Virus record (IMG/VR): IMGVR_UViG_2563366956_000015
Span: 1-35,129 of that record
Direction: 5' to 3' (one strand)
DNA length: 35,129 nucleotides
DNA from: a virus
Lineage: Duplodnaviria > Heunggongvirae > Uroviricota > Caudoviricetes
Below, one piece after another: positions 4,609-11,982 of this stretch (position 1 is the stretch's first letter; each line of letters opens with the position of its first letter). The notes under the pieces were generated by a model, which saw nothing but the letters and a program-made list of their open reading frames with translations, was not told the origin of the DNA and searched no databases. The translations under genes were made by a program, and so were the position numbers.

Positions 4609-4730
4609 GAAACCAGAACATGCACACACAAAAAAACCGCTTGCCATGCCGCAATCAGTCAGGTTACATTTCCGCTGCACCTCACAAAACGGGTGCCGGG
4701 TTTCGCAGCCTGCTGACTACACAAGCGCAC

Positions 4731-4752
4731 AACCGCGCCAGCGGTTTTTTTG
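4731..4752 (+). terminator. putative Rho-independent terminator (short GC stem plus T-run)
   Basis: AACCGC-gcca-GCGGTT followed by seven or more T, downstream of the 4309..4608 gene. Confidence 0.4.
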
Positions 4753-4930
4753 TGCGTACTGTATTGCCACGTTTTTTTCGCGTCAGAATTATGGCGGGGC
4801 GTACGGGGCCGACTTCGGTCGGGCCGGGTTCTTGTGTAGCCGGTACTGCGAACCTCGTACGTCTCGCCACCCACAGTTTCGCAGCTCTGGATGGTGAGTT
4901 TTCACAACTTACTACACAAGGAGCCACACC

Positions 4931-5233: not shown

Positions 5234-5623
5234 ATGATTGACGCTCATGACTTCACAAGATGGGTGCGCACACAGGACACCCGTCTGGCTCCCGTTCTTC
5301 AGGGATTATTTGATCTCTACATCCGTGGTCGTGACAACAGAGCACGCACCACAAAACCGGAGAATGCAGACACCCTTTATTTCACAGTAGACGACTGCTA
5401 CCGCGTGGACTTCACACCACACGGGCTGGCGTTGCACTGCCTGACACCACACGGAGAATCACTGCTGGCGTATTACGACTCCCCGGCCTCCGTATTTGCG
5501 GCAATGCTGGCGCATCGCACTGCTGGCGGGTGTGCCTCGCTGAGTGAATACACCGCTGAATTTAACCGCCTTTCTGCCCTCTTCTCGCAGGAGTGGCAGC
5601 GCGTGACGGGATACCAGCCATGA
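5234..5623 (+). CDS. hypothetical early protein immediately upstream of A
   Basis: 129 aa ORF; its stop overlaps the A start (ATGA). Confidence 0.55.
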   Translation: MIDAHDFTRWVRTQDTRLAPVLQGLFDLYIRGRDNRARTTKPENADTLYFTVDDCYRVDFTPHGLALHCLTPHGESLLAYYDSPASVFAAMLAHRTAGGCASLSEYTAEFNRLSALFSQEWQRVTGYQP

Positions 5624-8460
5624 GTGAGTTTGCATGGAGCTGGAATGAACCACGGCCAGCCATTGATCCGGCCAGATTTACGGAGCACAGGCAGGAAACT
5701 GAAACCGACCTGCAACGCGCCATCCGTTACTACCTTGAGGCGGACAAAAGGGCACAGAAAGAACAGGAAGCGAAGGAAGAAGCCTTTTTCGCACAATCCG
5801 CCATGGGTAAAAAACTCATGGCATCCCTTGAGGAAGCCGGACAGCGTGAAAAGCTGGCACAGAGCATCATCAGTAAGCGCCGGGCAACAGAACAAGACCC
5901 GGTAGCCCGTGCCTTTGCCACACTGAAGGCGCTTCCCGTTTATCTGCGAGAACCTCTGAGCCGCCACCTCTCTTTCCTGCGCAAGAAGCAGGAAGCCGAT
6001 CGTCAGAAAGGCAAAAAGAGCTGGCAGGCGGAACGCTATGCACGCGGAACCCTGCGCAAAATATTCGAACGTCTGGACCGTACCGACAGCCGCTGGCTGA
6101 CACCGGGTTATCGCTCCCTTGCCGGACGCGAACGCCTGGACGATTTGCTTTACCTGCCGCAGCTCAACAAACACCAGATACAGACGCTGGCCACCATGAC
6201 GGCGGCGATGTTCAGCAGCACCTTCGAAAAACTCTGCGATGGCTTTGGCGCGACTGATGGTGAACTGACCATGGATGTAACGCTGAAGGCGTATCAGATG
6301 CTGGCCCGCATGGCGTTACACCTGCACGCCATGCCTCCACATTATGACGCACTGACAACAGACAAAGACCGGAGGAACGAACCGGACACGGAGCTGCTGC
6401 CGGGCGCAATCCTTCGCCTGACCTGTGCGGAATGGTGGAAACGCAAACTGTGGCTGTTACGTTGCGAGTGGAGAGAAGAACAACTCCGCGCCGCCTGTCT
6501 GGTTTCCAGAAAAACATCACCCTATCTGAGCCAGGACGCGTTAAGCGAGTTTCGCGCACAGCGCGAGAAAACACGCGATTTCCTGAAAAGTTTCATGCTG
6601 GAAAATGAAGACGGGTTCACGATTGATCTCGAGACGGCGTATTACGCGGGAGTAAGTAACCCGGTTCACCGTAAGGCAGAAATGATGGCCACCATGAAGG
6701 GACTGGAACTTCTGGCCGAAGCCCGTGGCGACAGAGCGGTGTTTCTGACTGTCACCTGCCCGTCAAAATACCACGCAACAACGGAGAACGGTCATCCGAA
6801 CCCCAAATGGAACGGGGCCACCATGCGCGACTCCAGCGATTACCTGGTTAACACGTTTTTTGCGGCGGTCCGCAAAAAACTGAACCGCGACGGTCTGCGC
6901 TGGTATGGCATCCGCACGGTGGAGCCTCACCATGACGGCACCGTGCACTGGCATATGATGGTCTTTGCACATCCGGACGAGATTGAAACCATCGTGTCCC
7001 ACGTCTGCGATATTGCCATTCAGGAAGACCGCCACGAGCTGGGCGATGACATAACTCCGCGTTTTAAGGCGGAGTACGTAGACGGCTCAAAAGGCACACC
7101 AACCAGCTACATCGCCACCTACATCGGAAAGAACCTGGACAGCCGCGCCGTGGATGGCATCGACCCGAAAACGGGCAAGCCACGCGTTGACCACGAAACC
7201 GGAAAATCAATGGCCGAGAGCGTGGAACGCGCCATCGGCTGGGCGCGCCTTCACCGGGTCCGCCAGTTCCAGTTCTTTGGTATCCCCTCCCGTCAGGTGT
7301 GGCGTGAACTGCGCCGCCTTGCCAGCCAGATGGCACGCAACCCGGAAGGCCCGCAACGGCTGAAGGATGACGCAATGGACGCGGTTCTCGCTGCCGCTGA
7401 TGCCGGATGTTTTGCCACCTACATTGAGAAACAGGGTGGCGTACTTGTTCCACGCAAAGACTACCTGATTCGCACCGCCTACGACCTCGCAGATGAGCTG
7501 AACGATTACGGTGAACAGAGCGTACAGATTTACGGGATCTGGTCGCCGCTCATTGGGGAGTCTTCCCGCGTATGCACGCATCCGGATAACTGGAAGCTGG
7601 TAAGACGCAAACCGGAAGCGGAAGACAGCGCCCGCGAAAATGGTTTTGACCTTCAGGGCGGCCCTGCCGCCCCTTGGACTCGTGGCAATAACTGTCCCCG
7701 TGTACAAGAAACGGACAACAACGGGACAGAACAGCCGGAAGAACGGTCAGCACCGTGGCCGCAGCTCCCTGACGGCGTTGAAGTGAACGAATGGATGCGC
7801 TCACTGAAACGGCACGAACGCCGGGCGCTGATGCGTTCGCTTCGTGACAAACAGGCAAAAAACAGCAGTGATGAAATGCAGAGCTGGACACAGAGCCGCA
7901 AACAGCCGCGGCCTTTGCCTGATAACCACGAATTACTCGCTAAAGAATGGCGGGAGTCTGCTGAATCTCTCGGCCTGCATATCGGTGAACAACAGATGCA
8001 GCACCTGTTACGGGGCGGCAGTCTGTACGTTGACGGCAGCATCATTGCACCGCAGGGATTTGAAATTGTACGCAAACCGGATACCCGCCCGGACAGCCGG
8101 ATCACGCAGCTCTGGCAACGCCTGAGCCGTAATCACGGCGTAAGCAGCACGGAGATCCGCCATAACCCGGTCGCCAGCTATCTGGAACAGCTGGGGGCAT
8201 CAGACCCTGAAGCCGCCGCACGCCTGGCATCCACACTTCAGCAGGACCAGAACACCATGAAAACACCCGTTACCGTGCTTTCTGACATGCTGCGCGCCAT
8301 CCGTGACGCAGAGCACGCACAGAGAATCAGTGAAACCACTGAACGCGCCCGCCGCAAAGCAGACCTGCTGCAGGGTGGCCTGACCAGTGGAAACAAAAAA
8401 CAGACAGAAACGGGATTCACAAATCCCGTAAATGAGCAAAAAACGCGCCGCGATATATGA
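5620..8460 (+). CDS. A: rolling-circle replication initiation protein (P2 gpA-like) with a long C-terminal extension
   Basis: VEPHHDGTVHWHMMVF matches the conserved gpA motif as I recall it; start set at the ATG at 5620; position after the early genes. Confidence 0.9.
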   Translation: MSEFAWSWNEPRPAIDPARFTEHRQETETDLQRAIRYYLEADKRAQKEQEAKEEAFFAQSAMGKKLMASLEEAGQREKLAQSIISKRRATEQDPVARAFATLKALPVYLREPLSRHLSFLRKKQEADRQKGKKSWQAERYARGTLRKIFERLDRTDSRWLTPGYRSLAGRERLDDLLYLPQLNKHQIQTLATMTAAMFSSTFEKLCDGFGATDGELTMDVTLKAYQMLARMALHLHAMPPHYDALTTDKDRRNEPDTELLPGAILRLTCAEWWKRKLWLLRCEWREEQLRAACLVSRKTSPYLSQDALSEFRAQREKTRDFLKSFMLENEDGFTIDLETAYYAGVSNPVHRKAEMMATMKGLELLAEARGDRAVFLTVTCPSKYHATTENGHPNPKWNGATMRDSSDYLVNTFFAAVRKKLNRDGLRWYGIRTVEPHHDGTVHWHMMVFAHPDEIETIVSHVCDIAIQEDRHELGDDITPRFKAEYVDGSKGTPTSYIATYIGKNLDSRAVDGIDPKTGKPRVDHETGKSMAESVERAIGWARLHRVRQFQFFGIPSRQVWRELRRLASQMARNPEGPQRLKDDAMDAVLAAADAGCFATYIEKQGGVLVPRKDYLIRTAYDLADELNDYGEQSVQIYGIWSPLIGESSRVCTHPDNWKLVRRKPEAEDSARENGFDLQGGPAAPWTRGNNCPRVQETDNNGTEQPEERSAPWPQLPDGVEVNEWMRSLKRHERRALMRSLRDKQAKNSSDEMQSWTQSRKQPRPLPDNHELLAKEWRESAESLGLHIGEQQMQHLLRGGSLYVDGSIIAPQGFEIVRKPDTRPDSRITQLWQRLSRNHGVSSTEIRHNPVASYLEQLGASDPEAAARLASTLQQDQNTMKTPVTVLSDMLRAIRDAEHAQRISETTERARRKADLLQGGLTSGNKKQTETGFTNPVNEQKTRRDI

Positions 8461-8504
8461 AGCGCGCATAAAACAGGCAAAAACGGGATTTCAGAATCCC
8501 GTAA
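8408..8504. promoter_or_regulatory. two copies of an 8-bp-arm palindrome (ACGGGATT-N4-AATCCCGT), candidate centromere/operator upstream of the parM-like gene
   Basis: Copies at 8410-8429 and 8483-8502, 73 bp apart; the first lies in the last codons of A, the second about 35 bp before the parM-like start. Confidence 0.5.
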
Positions 8505-8536
8505 ACGATTAATTAATCAACATAAGGAAAAGCGAC

Positions 8537-9496
8537 ATGAAAATTTGTATCGACGACGGCTCCACCAACATCAAGCTGGCATGGACTGAGAACGGCGAAC
8601 GCCGCAACGCCATCAGCCCGAACAGCTTCAAGTCGGAATGGTCTGCGCCGTTCGGTGGCACGCAGCCCGCGAATTACATGCTTGATGGCGTGCGCTATGG
8701 TTTTGATCCGGTCAGCGATCGCTTTGTCCAGACGACCGACACGCAATACCAGTACAGCGATGTGAATGTCATTGCCATTCATCACGCGCTGGTCAAATCA
8801 GGCATCACGCCACAGGAGGTGGATGTGGTTGTCACCCTGCCACTGAGCGAGTATTTCGACACAAACGCCCAGCCGGATATGACCAACATCAACCGCAAAA
8901 AAGCGAACGTTATGCGCCCGGTGGAGTACCAGAACGGCGAAGCATTCACTATCCGTAACGTGCGGGTTATGCCTGAATCCATTCCGGCTGGCTTTAAGGC
9001 GCTGGCTGACATGAGTCCGTTTGAATCCCTGCTGATTGTGGATTTAGGCGGAACCACGCTGGATGTGGCAAAGGTTCAGGGACAACTGGCAGGTATCAGC
9101 CAGGTGTTTTGCGATCCACACGTAGGCGTTTCTCTGATGGCCGATGCCGTGCTGTCGGTGATGGCCACTAACGGTATGCGCACCAGTCACCACATCGCCA
9201 ATACCATTATCGAACATCGCCATGATGAAGCCTGGCTGCGCCAGCACATCCACAATGACGCACATTACAACAGCCTGATGGCGGTTATTCGTGAAAAGGA
9301 AGAAACACTGAAACAACGTGTACTCCGCGCGCTGGCGAGCTTTTCGGGTTACGGGCGGGTGATGGTTGTCGGTGGAGGGGCGGAGATTGTGGCACCCGCT
9401 GTCCGCGAAGCCTGCGGAGTTAATGCGACTTTTATCGCGGACGGGGTGCCACAGTTTGCTCTGGTTAATGGTCTCCACGCCATGAACAGGGAATAG
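8537..9496 (+). CDS. parM: actin-like segregation ATPase, ParM/StbA family
   Basis: N-terminal MKICIDDGSTNIKLAW, plus ISPNSFK, YSDVNV..HHAL, VMPESIPAG, DLGGTTLDV and VGGGAE blocks, all match plasmid R1 ParM as I recall it. Confidence 0.85.
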   Translation: MKICIDDGSTNIKLAWTENGERRNAISPNSFKSEWSAPFGGTQPANYMLDGVRYGFDPVSDRFVQTTDTQYQYSDVNVIAIHHALVKSGITPQEVDVVVTLPLSEYFDTNAQPDMTNINRKKANVMRPVEYQNGEAFTIRNVRVMPESIPAGFKALADMSPFESLLIVDLGGTTLDVAKVQGQLAGISQVFCDPHVGVSLMADAVLSVMATNGMRTSHHIANTIIEHRHDEAWLRQHIHNDAHYNSLMAVIREKEETLKQRVLRALASFSGYGRVMVVGGGAEIVAPAVREACGVNATFIADGVPQFALVNGLHAMNRE

Positions 9497-9499
9497 ATC

Positions 9500-9811
9500 A
9501 TGACGACATCAACCAGACGGATAAGTTTCTATCTGAAGCCAGCCGCAGTCAAGAACGAAAGCGAAGCGTGTGCCTGGCTGGACAGTCTTACACCAGAAGC
9601 CCGCAAAAGCGGCCAGCGTGTGGCTTTTCTGGCCGGACTGGCGCTTCTGAAGAAGAATCCGGCAGAGGCTTACCGGCTGGCTGCATGGGCTGACGATGAG
9701 CCGTTACCCGTGACACAGGTCTGTGCGGAAAAAACCAAAACACAGGCTGCGCCAGAGGCTCAGACAACCAGCCAGATGGCCGCAAACATCAGGGCGTTAT
9801 TCCCCGAATAA
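9500..9811 (+). CDS. parR: ParR-like partition adaptor/repressor (putative)
   Basis: Directly downstream of the parM-like gene; about 100 aa; RISFYLKP, LAGLALL and C-terminal RALFPE resemble R1 ParR features from memory. Confidence 0.55.
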   Translation: MTTSTRRISFYLKPAAVKNESEACAWLDSLTPEARKSGQRVAFLAGLALLKKNPAEAYRLAAWADDEPLPVTQVCAEKTKTQAAPEAQTTSQMAANIRALFPE

Positions 9812-9886
9812 GGCGACGTGATAAGGCATGGCGGACAGTTTTTATTTAGTGCGTCATGCCTTCAGGACAGCAAGCATGAGGCATCC

Positions 9887-10087
9887 ATGACGAAAAGACT
9901 GACATTACTTTTTTCGCTGGTTTTCGTTCCGTTGGCGCACTCAGGCACACCGAACTGCACAACGGAAAAGAGCAACACAGTCATCGTTGTCCAGTGCGAT
10001 GACGGCACGGTGACAATCACCGACTCAAGCAAGGGGAGCGTACTGGTCTGTCGCAAAGGGCAGCTCTGTCAACACACTGAACTTTGA
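9887..10087 (+). CDS. small secreted Cys-rich protein (signal peptide, about 66 aa precursor)
   Basis: ORF 9818..10087 trimmed to the ATG at 9887 after a GAGG RBS; MTKRLTLLFSLVFVPLAHS looks like a signal peptide; four Cys in the mature part. Confidence 0.5.
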   Translation: MTKRLTLLFSLVFVPLAHSGTPNCTTEKSNTVIVVQCDDGTVTITDSSKGSVLVCRKGQLCQHTEL

Positions 10088-10099
10088 AGGAGAAAGAAG

Positions 10100-10432
10100 A
10101 TGACCACAGCATACTCTGCAATGACCCCGGAAAAAGCACTCCATCTGATAGAACGACTGGAGGCGCTCGCCACAGAGGAAGAAATCTCCCCGGAGAAACT
10201 GGTTGAGTGCTGCCGTGTGATGTTGCGTCGCAAGGACGACATTGCGCGGCTGACATCCTACACATCATCCGTATCTGTCAGGCGAACGATTTATTGCAGC
10301 TTCTGCAAGAAACCACAGCACGCCGTCAAAAAGCTAATTGCCGGGGACGACGTTTTCATCTGCGACGAGTGTGTGGAAGCGTGCAACAGAGCTATCCGGG
10401 AAGAGCAAGAAAAGCGGGGAGTAAGAGGATGA
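10100..10432 (+). CDS. protein with a C-terminal ClpX-type C4 zinc-finger domain
   Basis: [35 protein letters not shown] matches the ClpX N-terminal zinc-binding motif (CSFCGK...LIAG...ICDECV). Confidence 0.6.
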
Positions 10433-10496
10433 ATGACGAATTTGACGGCTTTTAATTTTATCGGGGCGCACTGTCGCCCCGCACGAGGAAAACACG

Positions 10497-11006
10497 ATGA
10501 CAAAAGATGAATATCTGTTCATGACGAACGCGTTGCGGGTTGGTCTGGCCCCCTGCCCTGTCTCCGTGGAGTCTGTTGTCGGGAACACGATTTTTCGAAC
10601 ACTGCGCGATCGTGTCTCCGTGAAAATGATTCATCCGCTACCCAAAACCGCCAGCATGATCTATCTGCCGTTGCCCGACGCGATCCGGCTCATGCGTTCG
10701 CTGAAATTTGCGATTTGGATGCAGACACAACTCAACAAAGCAGTACAAAACACCTTCGTTAAGAGATTGATGCCAGAGCTTGCCGCCAGATGCGCAAAAT
10801 GCACCAGACCAGCACTTCACTTTGATCTGTCGTTGATTCAACGCGCTGCCGAATCCGAGTTCTACCGACTTGCCTTTCTCCGTCATGCGCGACATGAGGA
10901 CAAAGAGATACGCCGCCTTTTGAATCTGTTTGTTTTTTCCGTTCGACGCACACGCGTTCAGGTCAATCGCATGATGCAGGCGCAGGACAAAGGAGGCAAT
11001 CAGTGA
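10497..11006 (+). CDS. hypothetical protein (169 aa)
   Basis: ORF in the accessory island; no family recognised. Confidence 0.5.
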   Translation: MTKDEYLFMTNALRVGLAPCPVSVESVVGNTIFRTLRDRVSVKMIHPLPKTASMIYLPLPDAIRLMRSLKFAIWMQTQLNKAVQNTFVKRLMPELAARCAKCTRPALHFDLSLIQRAAESEFYRLAFLRHARHEDKEIRRLLNLFVFSVRRTRVQVNRMMQAQDKGGNQ

Positions 11007-11542
11007 GCGGGATTGACTATCAGGCACTGCGTGAAGCGGCAGAGCAGGCAATACATGATGACTGGGGATATGATGCGGATATTTTCCATGAACAGGTGAC
11101 ACCATCGGTTGTGCTGGCGTTGCTGGATGAGAATGAAAGAATGTGCCGCAACCTCATCGCCCGCAATGGTGAGATTGAAGGGCTTCGAAGGCGGGCTGCT
11201 GAACTGGAAAAAATCGCCACTGACTATGCACTGAAATTCCAGAAAGCACAGGATGCACTAAAGTACGCCGTGTTAATGCGTAACAAAGCGCTTTCTTTTG
11301 AAGAGGCGATGCAATGTACAAAAGAAAAATACGAGGGAGTCATAAAAAAACTTGCCAAAAACGAGCATCCAGTCTCACCAATACCAAAACCAGAGAATGA
11401 CAAATTTACTGTATCGATCCCGGACCCAAAGGAGTATTTCATTAACGGCGTATTCCAGCCTTTGCGGTACGAAAGAGATGTTGAACGAGCCATCATAAAG
11501 GCTGGCGGAAAAGTCTCGTGGCAGGAGGCGGAAGATAATTAG
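11003..11542 (+). CDS. Ea22-like protein
   Basis: TPSVVLALLDENE motif and coiled-coil-like middle region; ATGA-type overlap with the upstream gene. Confidence 0.55.
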   Translation: MSGIDYQALREAAEQAIHDDWGYDADIFHEQVTPSVVLALLDENERMCRNLIARNGEIEGLRRRAAELEKIATDYALKFQKAQDALKYAVLMRNKALSFEEAMQCTKEKYEGVIKKLAKNEHPVSPIPKPENDKFTVSIPDPKEYFINGVFQPLRYERDVERAIIKAGGKVSWQEAEDN

Positions 11543-11559
11543 ATCCACGACAAACCAGG

Positions 11560-11982
11560 GCGATAATCACACATCGCCCTGCTGCACAATAGTGCACAAA
11601 TTTGCACAATTTTTTTGAACGACTTTTTGCCCTTCCGGCCCACGTGGCGGCTGGATCCGTTAAGGATCCGTGCGTGCACAAAAAAACGCGTTTTTGTTGC
11701 GCGCAGGTGCCGGGGAACAGCCCGCAATTTGGGGTCTGAAAGCACCCTCAGAAATCGCCAGAAATGCGGCTGATTGCGCCCCCTGACGCGATGTTTTATT
11801 GGTTGTGTGTGAAGTATGGGCTGATGCATCACACGCCCTGTGATGCGCTTTGGTGCGGCGTGTGCTGACAGGTTATTCAACCTGGTAGATCCCTGAGATG
11901 CCTGGTGCGTGACACACCGGAGCTGGTGAGTCGGGGCATAAATTTTTTATGCCCCGGCGAAGCAGCAGACAAGCGGAGCGCG
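11560..11982. other. putative cos/packaging region between the accessory island and portal gene Q
   Basis: Non-coding, as in P2 between old and Q; GGTGCCGGGGAACAGCC and GGGGTCTGAAAGCACC loosely resemble the P2/186 cos sequence; three TGCACAA repeats at 10-bp spacing (11583-11609); 11-bp-arm palindrome at about 11932-11958. Confidence 0.4.

Follow-up and report, generated by a model that had tools for sequence, protein, structure and literature searches.

Why does a phage that integrates into the chromosome carry a partition cassette of the type found on the low-copy plasmids R1 and R100? The question is posed by IMG/VR record IMGVR_UViG_2563366956_000015, a stretch of 35,129 nucleotides (hereafter the window) which corresponds to a whole P2-family prophage, P88-like in character. 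Directly after gpA, the gene for the replication initiator, lie homologs of the plasmid genes parM, specifying an actin-type ATPase, and parR, specifying its adaptor, and just upstream of parM are two inverted repeats (coordinates in Table 1). An initial annotation made from the DNA letters alone had described the module as residing in an integrase-encoding P2-like prophage, which is correct, and had proposed either episomal maintenance or a part in exclusion or defence. The explanation towards which we lean is that this is a complete ParMRC cassette, a working partition machine which would separate or position circular phage genomes after infection or excision. That it is a functional partition-type machine is very probable; that it serves a transient episome specifically is a more tentative proposal, quite possible but short of what we would call probable.

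The first gene after gpA had been read as resembling R1 ParM, and database comparisons bear this out. The open reading frame (ORF) matches the Pfam domains StbA_N [2.8e-82] and ParM C-terminal [4.4e-68]; a phmmer search of the PDB retrieves the R1 ParM structure 1mwk [7.9e-93] over residues 2-316; and in a multiple alignment the protein is 47% identical to R100 ParM along its full length. The nucleotide-binding residues have not been lost. The motifs DDGSTNIK (phosphate 1), the catalytic glutamate E147, DLGGTT (phosphate 2) and GGGA (adenosine) are complete, and residues D6, D7, G8, S9, T10, N11, K13, E147, D169, G171, G172, T173, T174 and G279-A282 are invariant with respect to the ParM proteins of R100, IncL/M and the plasmid prophage D6. 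We take E147 and D169 to be the equivalents of R1 residues E148 and D170, on the strength of the alignment and of prior knowledge. The frame is unbroken at all of the 88 loci examined, and pairwise ratios of nonsynonymous to synonymous substitution (dN/dS) of 0.04-0.14 indicate that ParM is under strong purifying selection. PHROGs assigns both ParM and ParR to the partition proteins. These comparisons confirm the ORF at 8537-9496 as a predicted full-length ParM/StbA-family ATPase.

The second gene had been noted for its ParR-like size and position, and it too proves to belong to the expected family. It matches Pfam PF10784, Plasmid_stab_B [4.9e-23], and its family profile matches the pB171 ParR/StbB structure 2jd3 [1.2e-11]; a search of the PDB with the single ParR sequence gave no match, the profile being required. 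Its conserved portions are an N-terminal domain (residues 1-65) and the C-terminal NIRALFPE, between which lies a hypervariable linker; pairwise dN/dS is 0.04-0.30 for residues 1-65 and 0.27-0.63 for the remainder. ParR occurs as at least two alleles, 82% and 51-58% identical to that of the window, which have the same N-terminus (TRRISFYLKP...) and the same C-terminal NI(R/Q)xLFPE and differ in the linker; the ParR of phage P88 is 82% identical to the allele of the window.

The C-terminus of ParR merits particular attention. In a pairwise BLASTP comparison with R1 ParR the end of the phage protein falls on R1 residues 75-82, which are internal, a placement by which the C-terminal ParM-binding tail of R1 would have been lost. 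When more sequences are included the C-termini align with one another (phage AANIRALFPE, R1 KKNAMKLIN, IncL/M RKNVQHLFPDDD and deeper phage RKNAASLFPR), a single asparagine being invariant. The motif N-x-x-x-L-F-P, which begins at N96 (N96-I-R-A-L-F-P), thus has its counterpart at the ends of the R1, IncL/M and distant phage ParR proteins, and is likely to be the ParM-binding helix. The structure model of the monomer, of low confidence (predicted local distance difference test score, 50), places a helix at residues 87-100. Because of the multi-sequence alignment and this predicted helix, the contact between ParR and ParM has probably been kept. A tblastn search of plasmids with ParR returned prophage-bearing records only, so that centromeres could not be compared with those of a plasmid whose ParR is close.

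The two copies of ACGGGATT-N4-AATCCCGT which had been pointed out just upstream of parM are both exact: ACGGGATTCACAAATCCCGT at 8410-8429 (inverted repeat 1, IR1) and ACGGGATTTCAGAATCCCGT at 8483-8502 (IR2). A scan of the whole window allowing up to three mismatches finds these two palindromes alone, the mean for shuffled sequences being 0.12. Each forms the core of a 42-nt direct repeat, the two units being 81% identical and 73 bp apart, and IR1 falls within the final 17 codons of gpA. The repeats follow the par cassette rather than gpA. In a phage with another allele of the gpA C-terminus, similarity to the window begins at approximately position 8396, where repeat unit 1 starts; in the P88-like prophage L019 (4380-4660), which has no parMR and a gpA that ends earlier, minus-strand cargo follows and the palindrome is absent. 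A second prophage of this group without parMR, L005 (5001-5110), has a frameshifted Ead/Ea22 gene directly after the gpA stop codon and retains IR1.

Comparison with relatives shows which parts of the repeats are held constant. The core CGGGA.T/AATCC is retained across 52 unique upstream sequences, and in a Hafnia relative at 94% identity, with a synonymous divergence (dS) of 0.67 in parM, the CGGGATT and AATCCC cores of both sites are kept while the sequence between them has diverged. In two lineages whose ParM is 62-63% identical (L100 and L101) the upstream DNA is otherwise unalignable. There the two best matches to a model of the site lie 132 and 60 bp (Plesiomonas) and 129 and 56 bp (Hafnia) before the parM ATG, as compared with 126 and 53 bp in the window, for a spacing of 72-73 bp throughout; site 1 is always located within the 3' end of the upstream ORF, whichever ORF that may be. 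A score of at least 11/14 was reached in 17 of 5000 shuffled sequences. At this depth the stems are no longer continuous (3-4 bp), and the GGG/CCC cores and the spacing are all that survive. The Serratia and Enterobacter lineages, in which the beta-strand of ParR reads NRKISFYL rather than TRRISFYL, have a different inverted pair of 19-20 nt in the same place.

Because the position and spacing of the sites are maintained at 62-63% ParM identity, and the sites change together with the DNA-reading strand of ParR, the two-site architecture supports a non-iteron parC/operator. There is moderate support for the palindromes as protein-binding sites on this comparative basis, and we think it probable that ParR is the protein which they bind. 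The proposal that they constitute a parC centromere and operator therefore stands insofar as they are credible ParR sites; what the region does not contain is an array of the R1 type, since the approximately ten 11-bp direct iterons are absent upstream of the parM gene of the window.

Covariation between the ParR allele (type A or B) and the variant of the palindrome was looked for among the P88-like phages and rejected, every variant occurring with both alleles. None would be expected there because the N-terminal strand of ParR is invariant; informative covariation was found in the deeper lineages only. At one IMG/VR locus (u35, one of L020-L099) the facing half-sites are altered, the right arm of IR1 being AACCCC and the left arm of IR2 GGGGTT, while the outer half-sites remain GGGATT. 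Between the two palindromes, at 8444-8466, a short GC-rich inverted repeat (CGCGC...GCGCG) extends across the gpA stop codon and is the most variable stretch of the parM upstream region among the relatives.

As to expression, the cassette stands at the end of the early replication operon, with 76 bp between gpA and parM. A strict scan for the sigma-70 consensus over 8200-10200 gives no promoter, and a scan for terminator-like sites on the plus strand between gpA and parM gives none; for these reasons read-through of parMR from the early operon is likely. A separate weak promoter is possible. The best relaxed match is TTCAGA-16-ATTAAT (8/12), in which the weak -35-like TTCAGA (8490-8495) occupies the centre of IR2.

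The comparisons establish what the genes are, that their motifs are intact, that they are under purifying selection and that their position and the architecture of the repeats are conserved; how ParR meets the repeats and ParM, when the cassette is expressed and what it does for the phage we infer, in the following scheme. ParR, as dimers, would occupy both GGGATT-N4-AATCCC palindromes upstream of parM, whose spacing is 73 bp. That nearer to parM, which overlaps the weak promoter, is probably also an operator at which ParR would autoregulate the cassette as it does in R1. The C-terminal helix of ParR would capture the ends of ATP-bound ParM filaments, and the growth of these filaments would push apart the DNA molecules that bear parC. 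As the prophage is almost always integrated, the likeliest substrate is a transient circle: the extrachromosomal phage genome after infection and before integration and, once more, after excision, in the course of P2-type replication. Replication of P2 proceeds from a nick made by gpA and results in monomeric double-stranded circles. These circles would be what the cassette distributes or positions, and srpMRC and AlpAC offer parallels, acting in this way on excised integrative and conjugative elements (ICEs) and on the induced prophage CGP3 respectively; maintenance of a plasmid prophage would form no part of the cassette's function.

A number of observations weigh against this scheme. Since natural variants without parMR, though rare, exist, the cassette is dispensable for persistence of the prophage, a finding from which the viability of L005 as a phage does not follow. 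The candidate centromere has two sites as against the ten iterons of an R1-type parC, and a local alignment of the upstream region with R100 parC scored no better than shuffled sequences, so that homology of the region to the R1/R100 parC was rejected. The conserved -10-like element suggests a dedicated promoter, which could be active in lysogens too. To these may be added the low confidence of the ParR model, the literature on ParM of P88-like phages, in which we found annotation-level mentions only and no experimental study, and the fact that on the minus strand both palindromes are scored as hairpins resembling intrinsic terminators.

The last point leads to the first alternative, namely that the palindromes are not a centromere at all. 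They might be minus-strand terminators, or hairpins concerned with the processing or stability of mRNA, in which case ParR would bind elsewhere or there would be no functional parC. Both copies have an 8-bp stem and a T-rich tail on the minus strand, the repeated unit includes this A/T-rich tail, and the small number of sites in comparison with R1 is in keeping with such a reading. Against it, no minus-strand gene ends at the palindromes, and the sites change with the type of ParR. A structured RNA was considered on the evidence of the 52 unique upstream sequences, and these contain no compensatory double changes; the single transitions that do occur would produce wobble pairs on the minus strand in IR1 and on the plus strand in IR2. 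Taken together, the absence of compensatory changes and the wobbles on opposite strands provide no positive evidence for an RNA structure. Lastly, the broken stems of the 62-63% lineages, with their preserved cores and spacing, would make poor terminators and be acceptable as protein sites. We regard the hairpin explanation as unlikely.

Of 5426 complete E. coli genomes, 1304 (24%) contain the cassette at 90% or greater nucleotide identity, and PGAP/RefSeq annotates it there in like manner; the carriers include strains of O157:H7, ST131, UTI89, E2348/69 and O104:H4. A module which had been thought out of the ordinary for a P2-like phage is therefore common, annotated in P88 and already in print (Rousset et al. 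2022). Over positions 8300-9811 Escherichia phage P88, Citrobacter rodentium phage phiSM and other Xuanwuvirus (Peduoviridae) are 93-96% identical to the window at the nucleotide level, P88 itself being 94% identical over this segment and 97.5% identical in ParM.

The cassette appears to be nearly a core component of its lineage. A query running from the gpA 3' end into the beginning of parM matched 1372 genomes, in 1287 of which both parts are covered, so that about 94% of the genomes with this lineage of gpA have an adjacent parM. Similarity to other P88-like phages ends exactly at the stop codon of parR. Among 80 related loci, compared over the 400 nt after parR, there are 24 unrelated downstream types, and that of the window is unique, being found in none of them. 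Because parM adjoins some 94% of the gpA lineage while the cargo on the right varies, these comparisons place the cassette as the constant left border of a variable hotspot, near-core in status, and not as exchangeable cargo.

The association with P2-like phages is an old one. A scan of genome contigs returned three near-identical loci only, and the deeper relatives were reached through protein searches and look-ups of contigs. In P2-like prophages of Plesiomonas, Hafnia, Serratia and Enterobacter a parM-parR pair is situated between gpA and the portal gene, and the ParM proteins of these Enterobacterales are 63-54% identical to that of the window, all of them above the 47% of R100. Since the nearest non-identical ParM proteins are in P2-like prophages, and are closer than R100 ParM, the comparison indicates that this ParM lineage has long been tied to integrating P2-like phages and is not a recent capture from a plasmid. 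A further copy, L016, occurs on a 226-kb contig (NZ_JBQPOM010000071.1) labelled 'Vagococcus sp. WN89Y', a Firmicute; it encodes a ParM which shares 97% identity with the ParM of the E. coli phage, and the same repeats are present upstream. This is likely to be the result of contamination or mislabelling.

The second alternative is a phage-plasmid lifestyle, in which the prophage would persist for long periods as a low-copy circular plasmid instead of integrating. It was suggested by Rousset et al. (2022) and also by the initial annotation. In its favour is the plasmid prophage D6, the only other clear source of a ParM homolog among cultured phages (48% identity; an Acinetobacter phage at 21% is borderline, E=7e-4), which has a homologous StbA/StbB pair. 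The cassette is represented in PLSDB by seven records, one of which, NZ_CP148288.1 (L002), is a circular E. coli 'plasmid' of 34,461 bp consisting of an entire P88-like genome complete with integrase. Between int and ogr this circle contains a hok/gef toxin gene, a Com regulator and a DNA methyltransferase.

The remainder of the evidence runs counter to such a lifestyle. In the complete E. coli genomes 1442 copies are chromosomal as against two on plasmids, which makes stable maintenance of a plasmid prophage unlikely and leaves the suggestion of episomal upkeep without direct support. Most of the other PLSDB matches are prophages within large replicons, five residing in replicons whose sizes range from 228 kb to 1.4 Mb; the last is a linear partial record of 26.8 kb. 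The phage of the chromosome of strain Z1323HEC0067, from the same study series as NZ_CP148288.1, is 99.9% identical to it over 3.5 kb, from the portal gene to the 3' end of gpA; because so similar a phage is chromosomal elsewhere, the circle may represent excised or replicating DNA. The window itself has an intact integrase and a C repressor. Among its annotated genes, the scope of this statement since no systematic search of the window was made for Rep proteins or iteron origins, there is no plasmid-type replicon, the sole initiator being the rolling-circle gpA in the lytic operon. We consider it improbable that the prophage lives as a plasmid, and partition of transient circles remains the reading that we prefer.

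A third alternative assigns the cassette to exclusion, incompatibility or defence: resident ParR and ParM would cause incoming DNA with like sites to be mis-segregated or silenced, or the filament would be part of an anti-phage system. The interval between gpA and gpQ is a known defence hotspot of P2-like phages (Rousset et al. 2022), and the cassette is at its edge. The conserved -10-like element, with a repeat lying over the -35, would permit autoregulated expression in the lysogen, and the linker of ParR is hypervariable, with two allelic types at 51-58% identity. The PADLOC models, on the other hand, match no product of the island's six genes (ParM, ParR and the four downstream ORFs), and the constancy of the cassette next to cargo that turns over is not the behaviour of a defence gene. 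Nor is there any sign of an arms race over specificity, because, among the P88-like phages, variation in the repeats is not accompanied by variation in the N-terminus with which ParR reads DNA. Without direct support, and with the near-core behaviour against it, the exclusion or defence function put forward at the outset is distinctly unlikely. Its most specific form, in which a ParR-controlled promoter of the cassette's own would be active in lysogens and bring about incompatibility in trans against incoming P88-like genomes or plasmids with matching sites, and which if true would mean that a quarter of E. coli strains employ an actin-like machine as a barrier to superinfection or plasmids and not for inheritance, is very improbable.

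Table 1. Features of the par cassette and of its surroundings in the window.
Feature	Position	Strand	Remarks
Integrase	596-1720	minus	Intact; helix-turn-helix (C) repressor adjoins
gpA replication initiator	5593..8460	+	Pfam Phage_GPA 4e-129; its final ~20 codons are shared with the left end of the par cassette; start codon from a mechanical ORF list, real start perhaps slightly downstream
Repeat unit 1	8394..8435		A-rich tract and IR1, ACGGGATT-CACA-AATCCCGT (8410-8429); candidate ParR site 1, in the 3' end of gpA
Repeat unit 2	8467..8508		A-rich tract and IR2, ACGGGATT-TCAG-AATCCCGT (8483-8502); candidate ParR site 2 / operator
ATTAATCAA	8512..8520	+	Possible -10 of a parM promoter; kept in Plesiomonas and in both Hafnia lineages as in the window
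Shine-Dalgarno TAAGGA	8523-8528	+	Downstream of ATTAATCAA
parM	8537..9496	+	319 amino acids; first gene after gpA; actin-fold cytomotive ATPase family
parR	9500..9811	+	103 amino acids; ribbon-helix-helix-family adaptor; 3-nt gap after parM
Variable gpA-gpQ hotspot cargo	9812..11982	+	Small secreted ORF, ClpX zinc-finger ORF, orf169, Ead/Ea22-like ORF; outside the cassette
Portal and terminase genes	from 11983	minus

Two of the cargo ORFs deserve brief mention. The N-terminus of the first, a small ORF (9818-10087, plus strand, with a probable start at 9887), resembles a signal peptide (MTKRLTLLFSLVFVPLAHSG), and the product contains several cysteines; Pfam gives no match for it, and it matches only PHROGs of unknown function. 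The second (10100-10432, plus strand, 110 amino acids), which is also present in P88, amounts to little more than a C4 zinc finger of the ClpX type (Pfam zf-C4_ClpX, 8.2e-17), the AAA+ body being absent, and belongs to PHROG 6797, of unknown function; conceivably it could disturb the recognition of substrates or adaptors by ClpX. In the early region of the window Rfam identifies, on the plus strand, the Hfq-binding small RNA isrK at 4677-4751 (64 bits) and a C4 antisense RNA at 4787-4874 (83 bits), just upstream of the spot at which relatives have an annotated 'derepression protein'. From these matches the region (4677-4874) looks like a C4-controlled antirepressor module of the P1/P7 type within a P2-like phage.

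How does the cassette compare with known systems? It is itself already known: RefSeq lists a 'plasmid segregation protein ParM' and a 'partition protein' on phage P88, and Rousset et al. (2022) described a 'putative plasmid partitioning system' in E. coli P2-like phages, present in 'around a fourth of P2-like phages', for which they suggested a role in plasmid maintenance. The same authors record old and tin at this position in canonical P2, as the initial annotation had also stated. In the paper on phiSM the gene figures solely as a 'fitness' factor. The cassette of the window is the same as that of P88, phiSM and the study of Rousset et al. (2022), and our figure of 24% of E. coli genomes agrees with their estimate; nothing material differs from P88 and phiSM, apart from a ParR allele at 82% identity to that of P88 and a right-hand cargo found at none of the 80 loci compared. 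As a claim of discovery the present analysis accordingly adds little, the genes being routinely annotated and both their prevalence and the idea of plasmid maintenance having been published. What goes beyond the printed record is the near-core status of the cassette, the purifying selection, the deep association with P2-like phages and the conserved two-site, non-iteron architecture.

With the ParMRC system of R1 and R100 (StbA/StbB/parC) the cassette shares the order of parC-like repeats, parM and parR, the conserved motifs of ParM and a similar ribosome-binding context (CATAAGGA), together with a ParR of the same family, PF10784, which has a related N-terminal strand and the C-terminal N-x-x-x-L motif. 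It differs in being carried by an integrating P2-like phage rather than by a low-copy plasmid. The parC of R100 consists of 5+5 direct, A-rich 11-bp ACCC iterons flanking the promoter, whereas the window has two 20-bp inverted repeats (8-N4-8), and R100 ParR has 116 amino acids as compared with 103 in the window, at 29% identity. If the repeats function as we suppose, they would amount to a centromere of minimal form for a close relative of R1 ParM, with two sites and no iterons. In D6 the StbA gene is likewise followed by a ParR-like gene (StbB); this prophage is an extrachromosomal phage-plasmid, and has TCTCA iterons upstream in place of the GGGATT/AATCCC inverted repeats.

The closest functional parallels come from elements that are normally integrated, and they contradict the statement that type II partition systems belong to plasmids and phage-plasmids. 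The srpMRC locus of the SXT/R391 ICEs (Carraro et al. 2015) is a type II system co-expressed with excision and replication functions, which stabilises the transient circle and lowers loss of the ICE, and SrpR binds repeats upstream of srpM (PMC4489591). It resides on an ICE and not on a phage, and SrpM and SrpR are, according to the same source, distantly related to R1 ParM and ParR, of which the phage proteins are close relatives; this comparison is by description. AlpAC of the integrated prophage CGP3 of Corynebacterium glutamicum (Donovan et al. 2015) pairs an actin-like ATPase with an adaptor, transcribed together with it, whose binding sequence lies upstream of the operon (alpS); its induction is early, and without it the excised phage does not replicate efficiently (PMC4446434). 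The system, likewise compared by description, differs in its Gram-positive host, in its family of actin-like proteins and in its gene order. With its actin-type ATPase, its adaptor and its upstream repeats, the integrative element of the window falls into line with this class, and if circular phage genomes are indeed what it partitions, the precedents of srpMRC and AlpAC would be extended to a very common family of Gram-negative phages.

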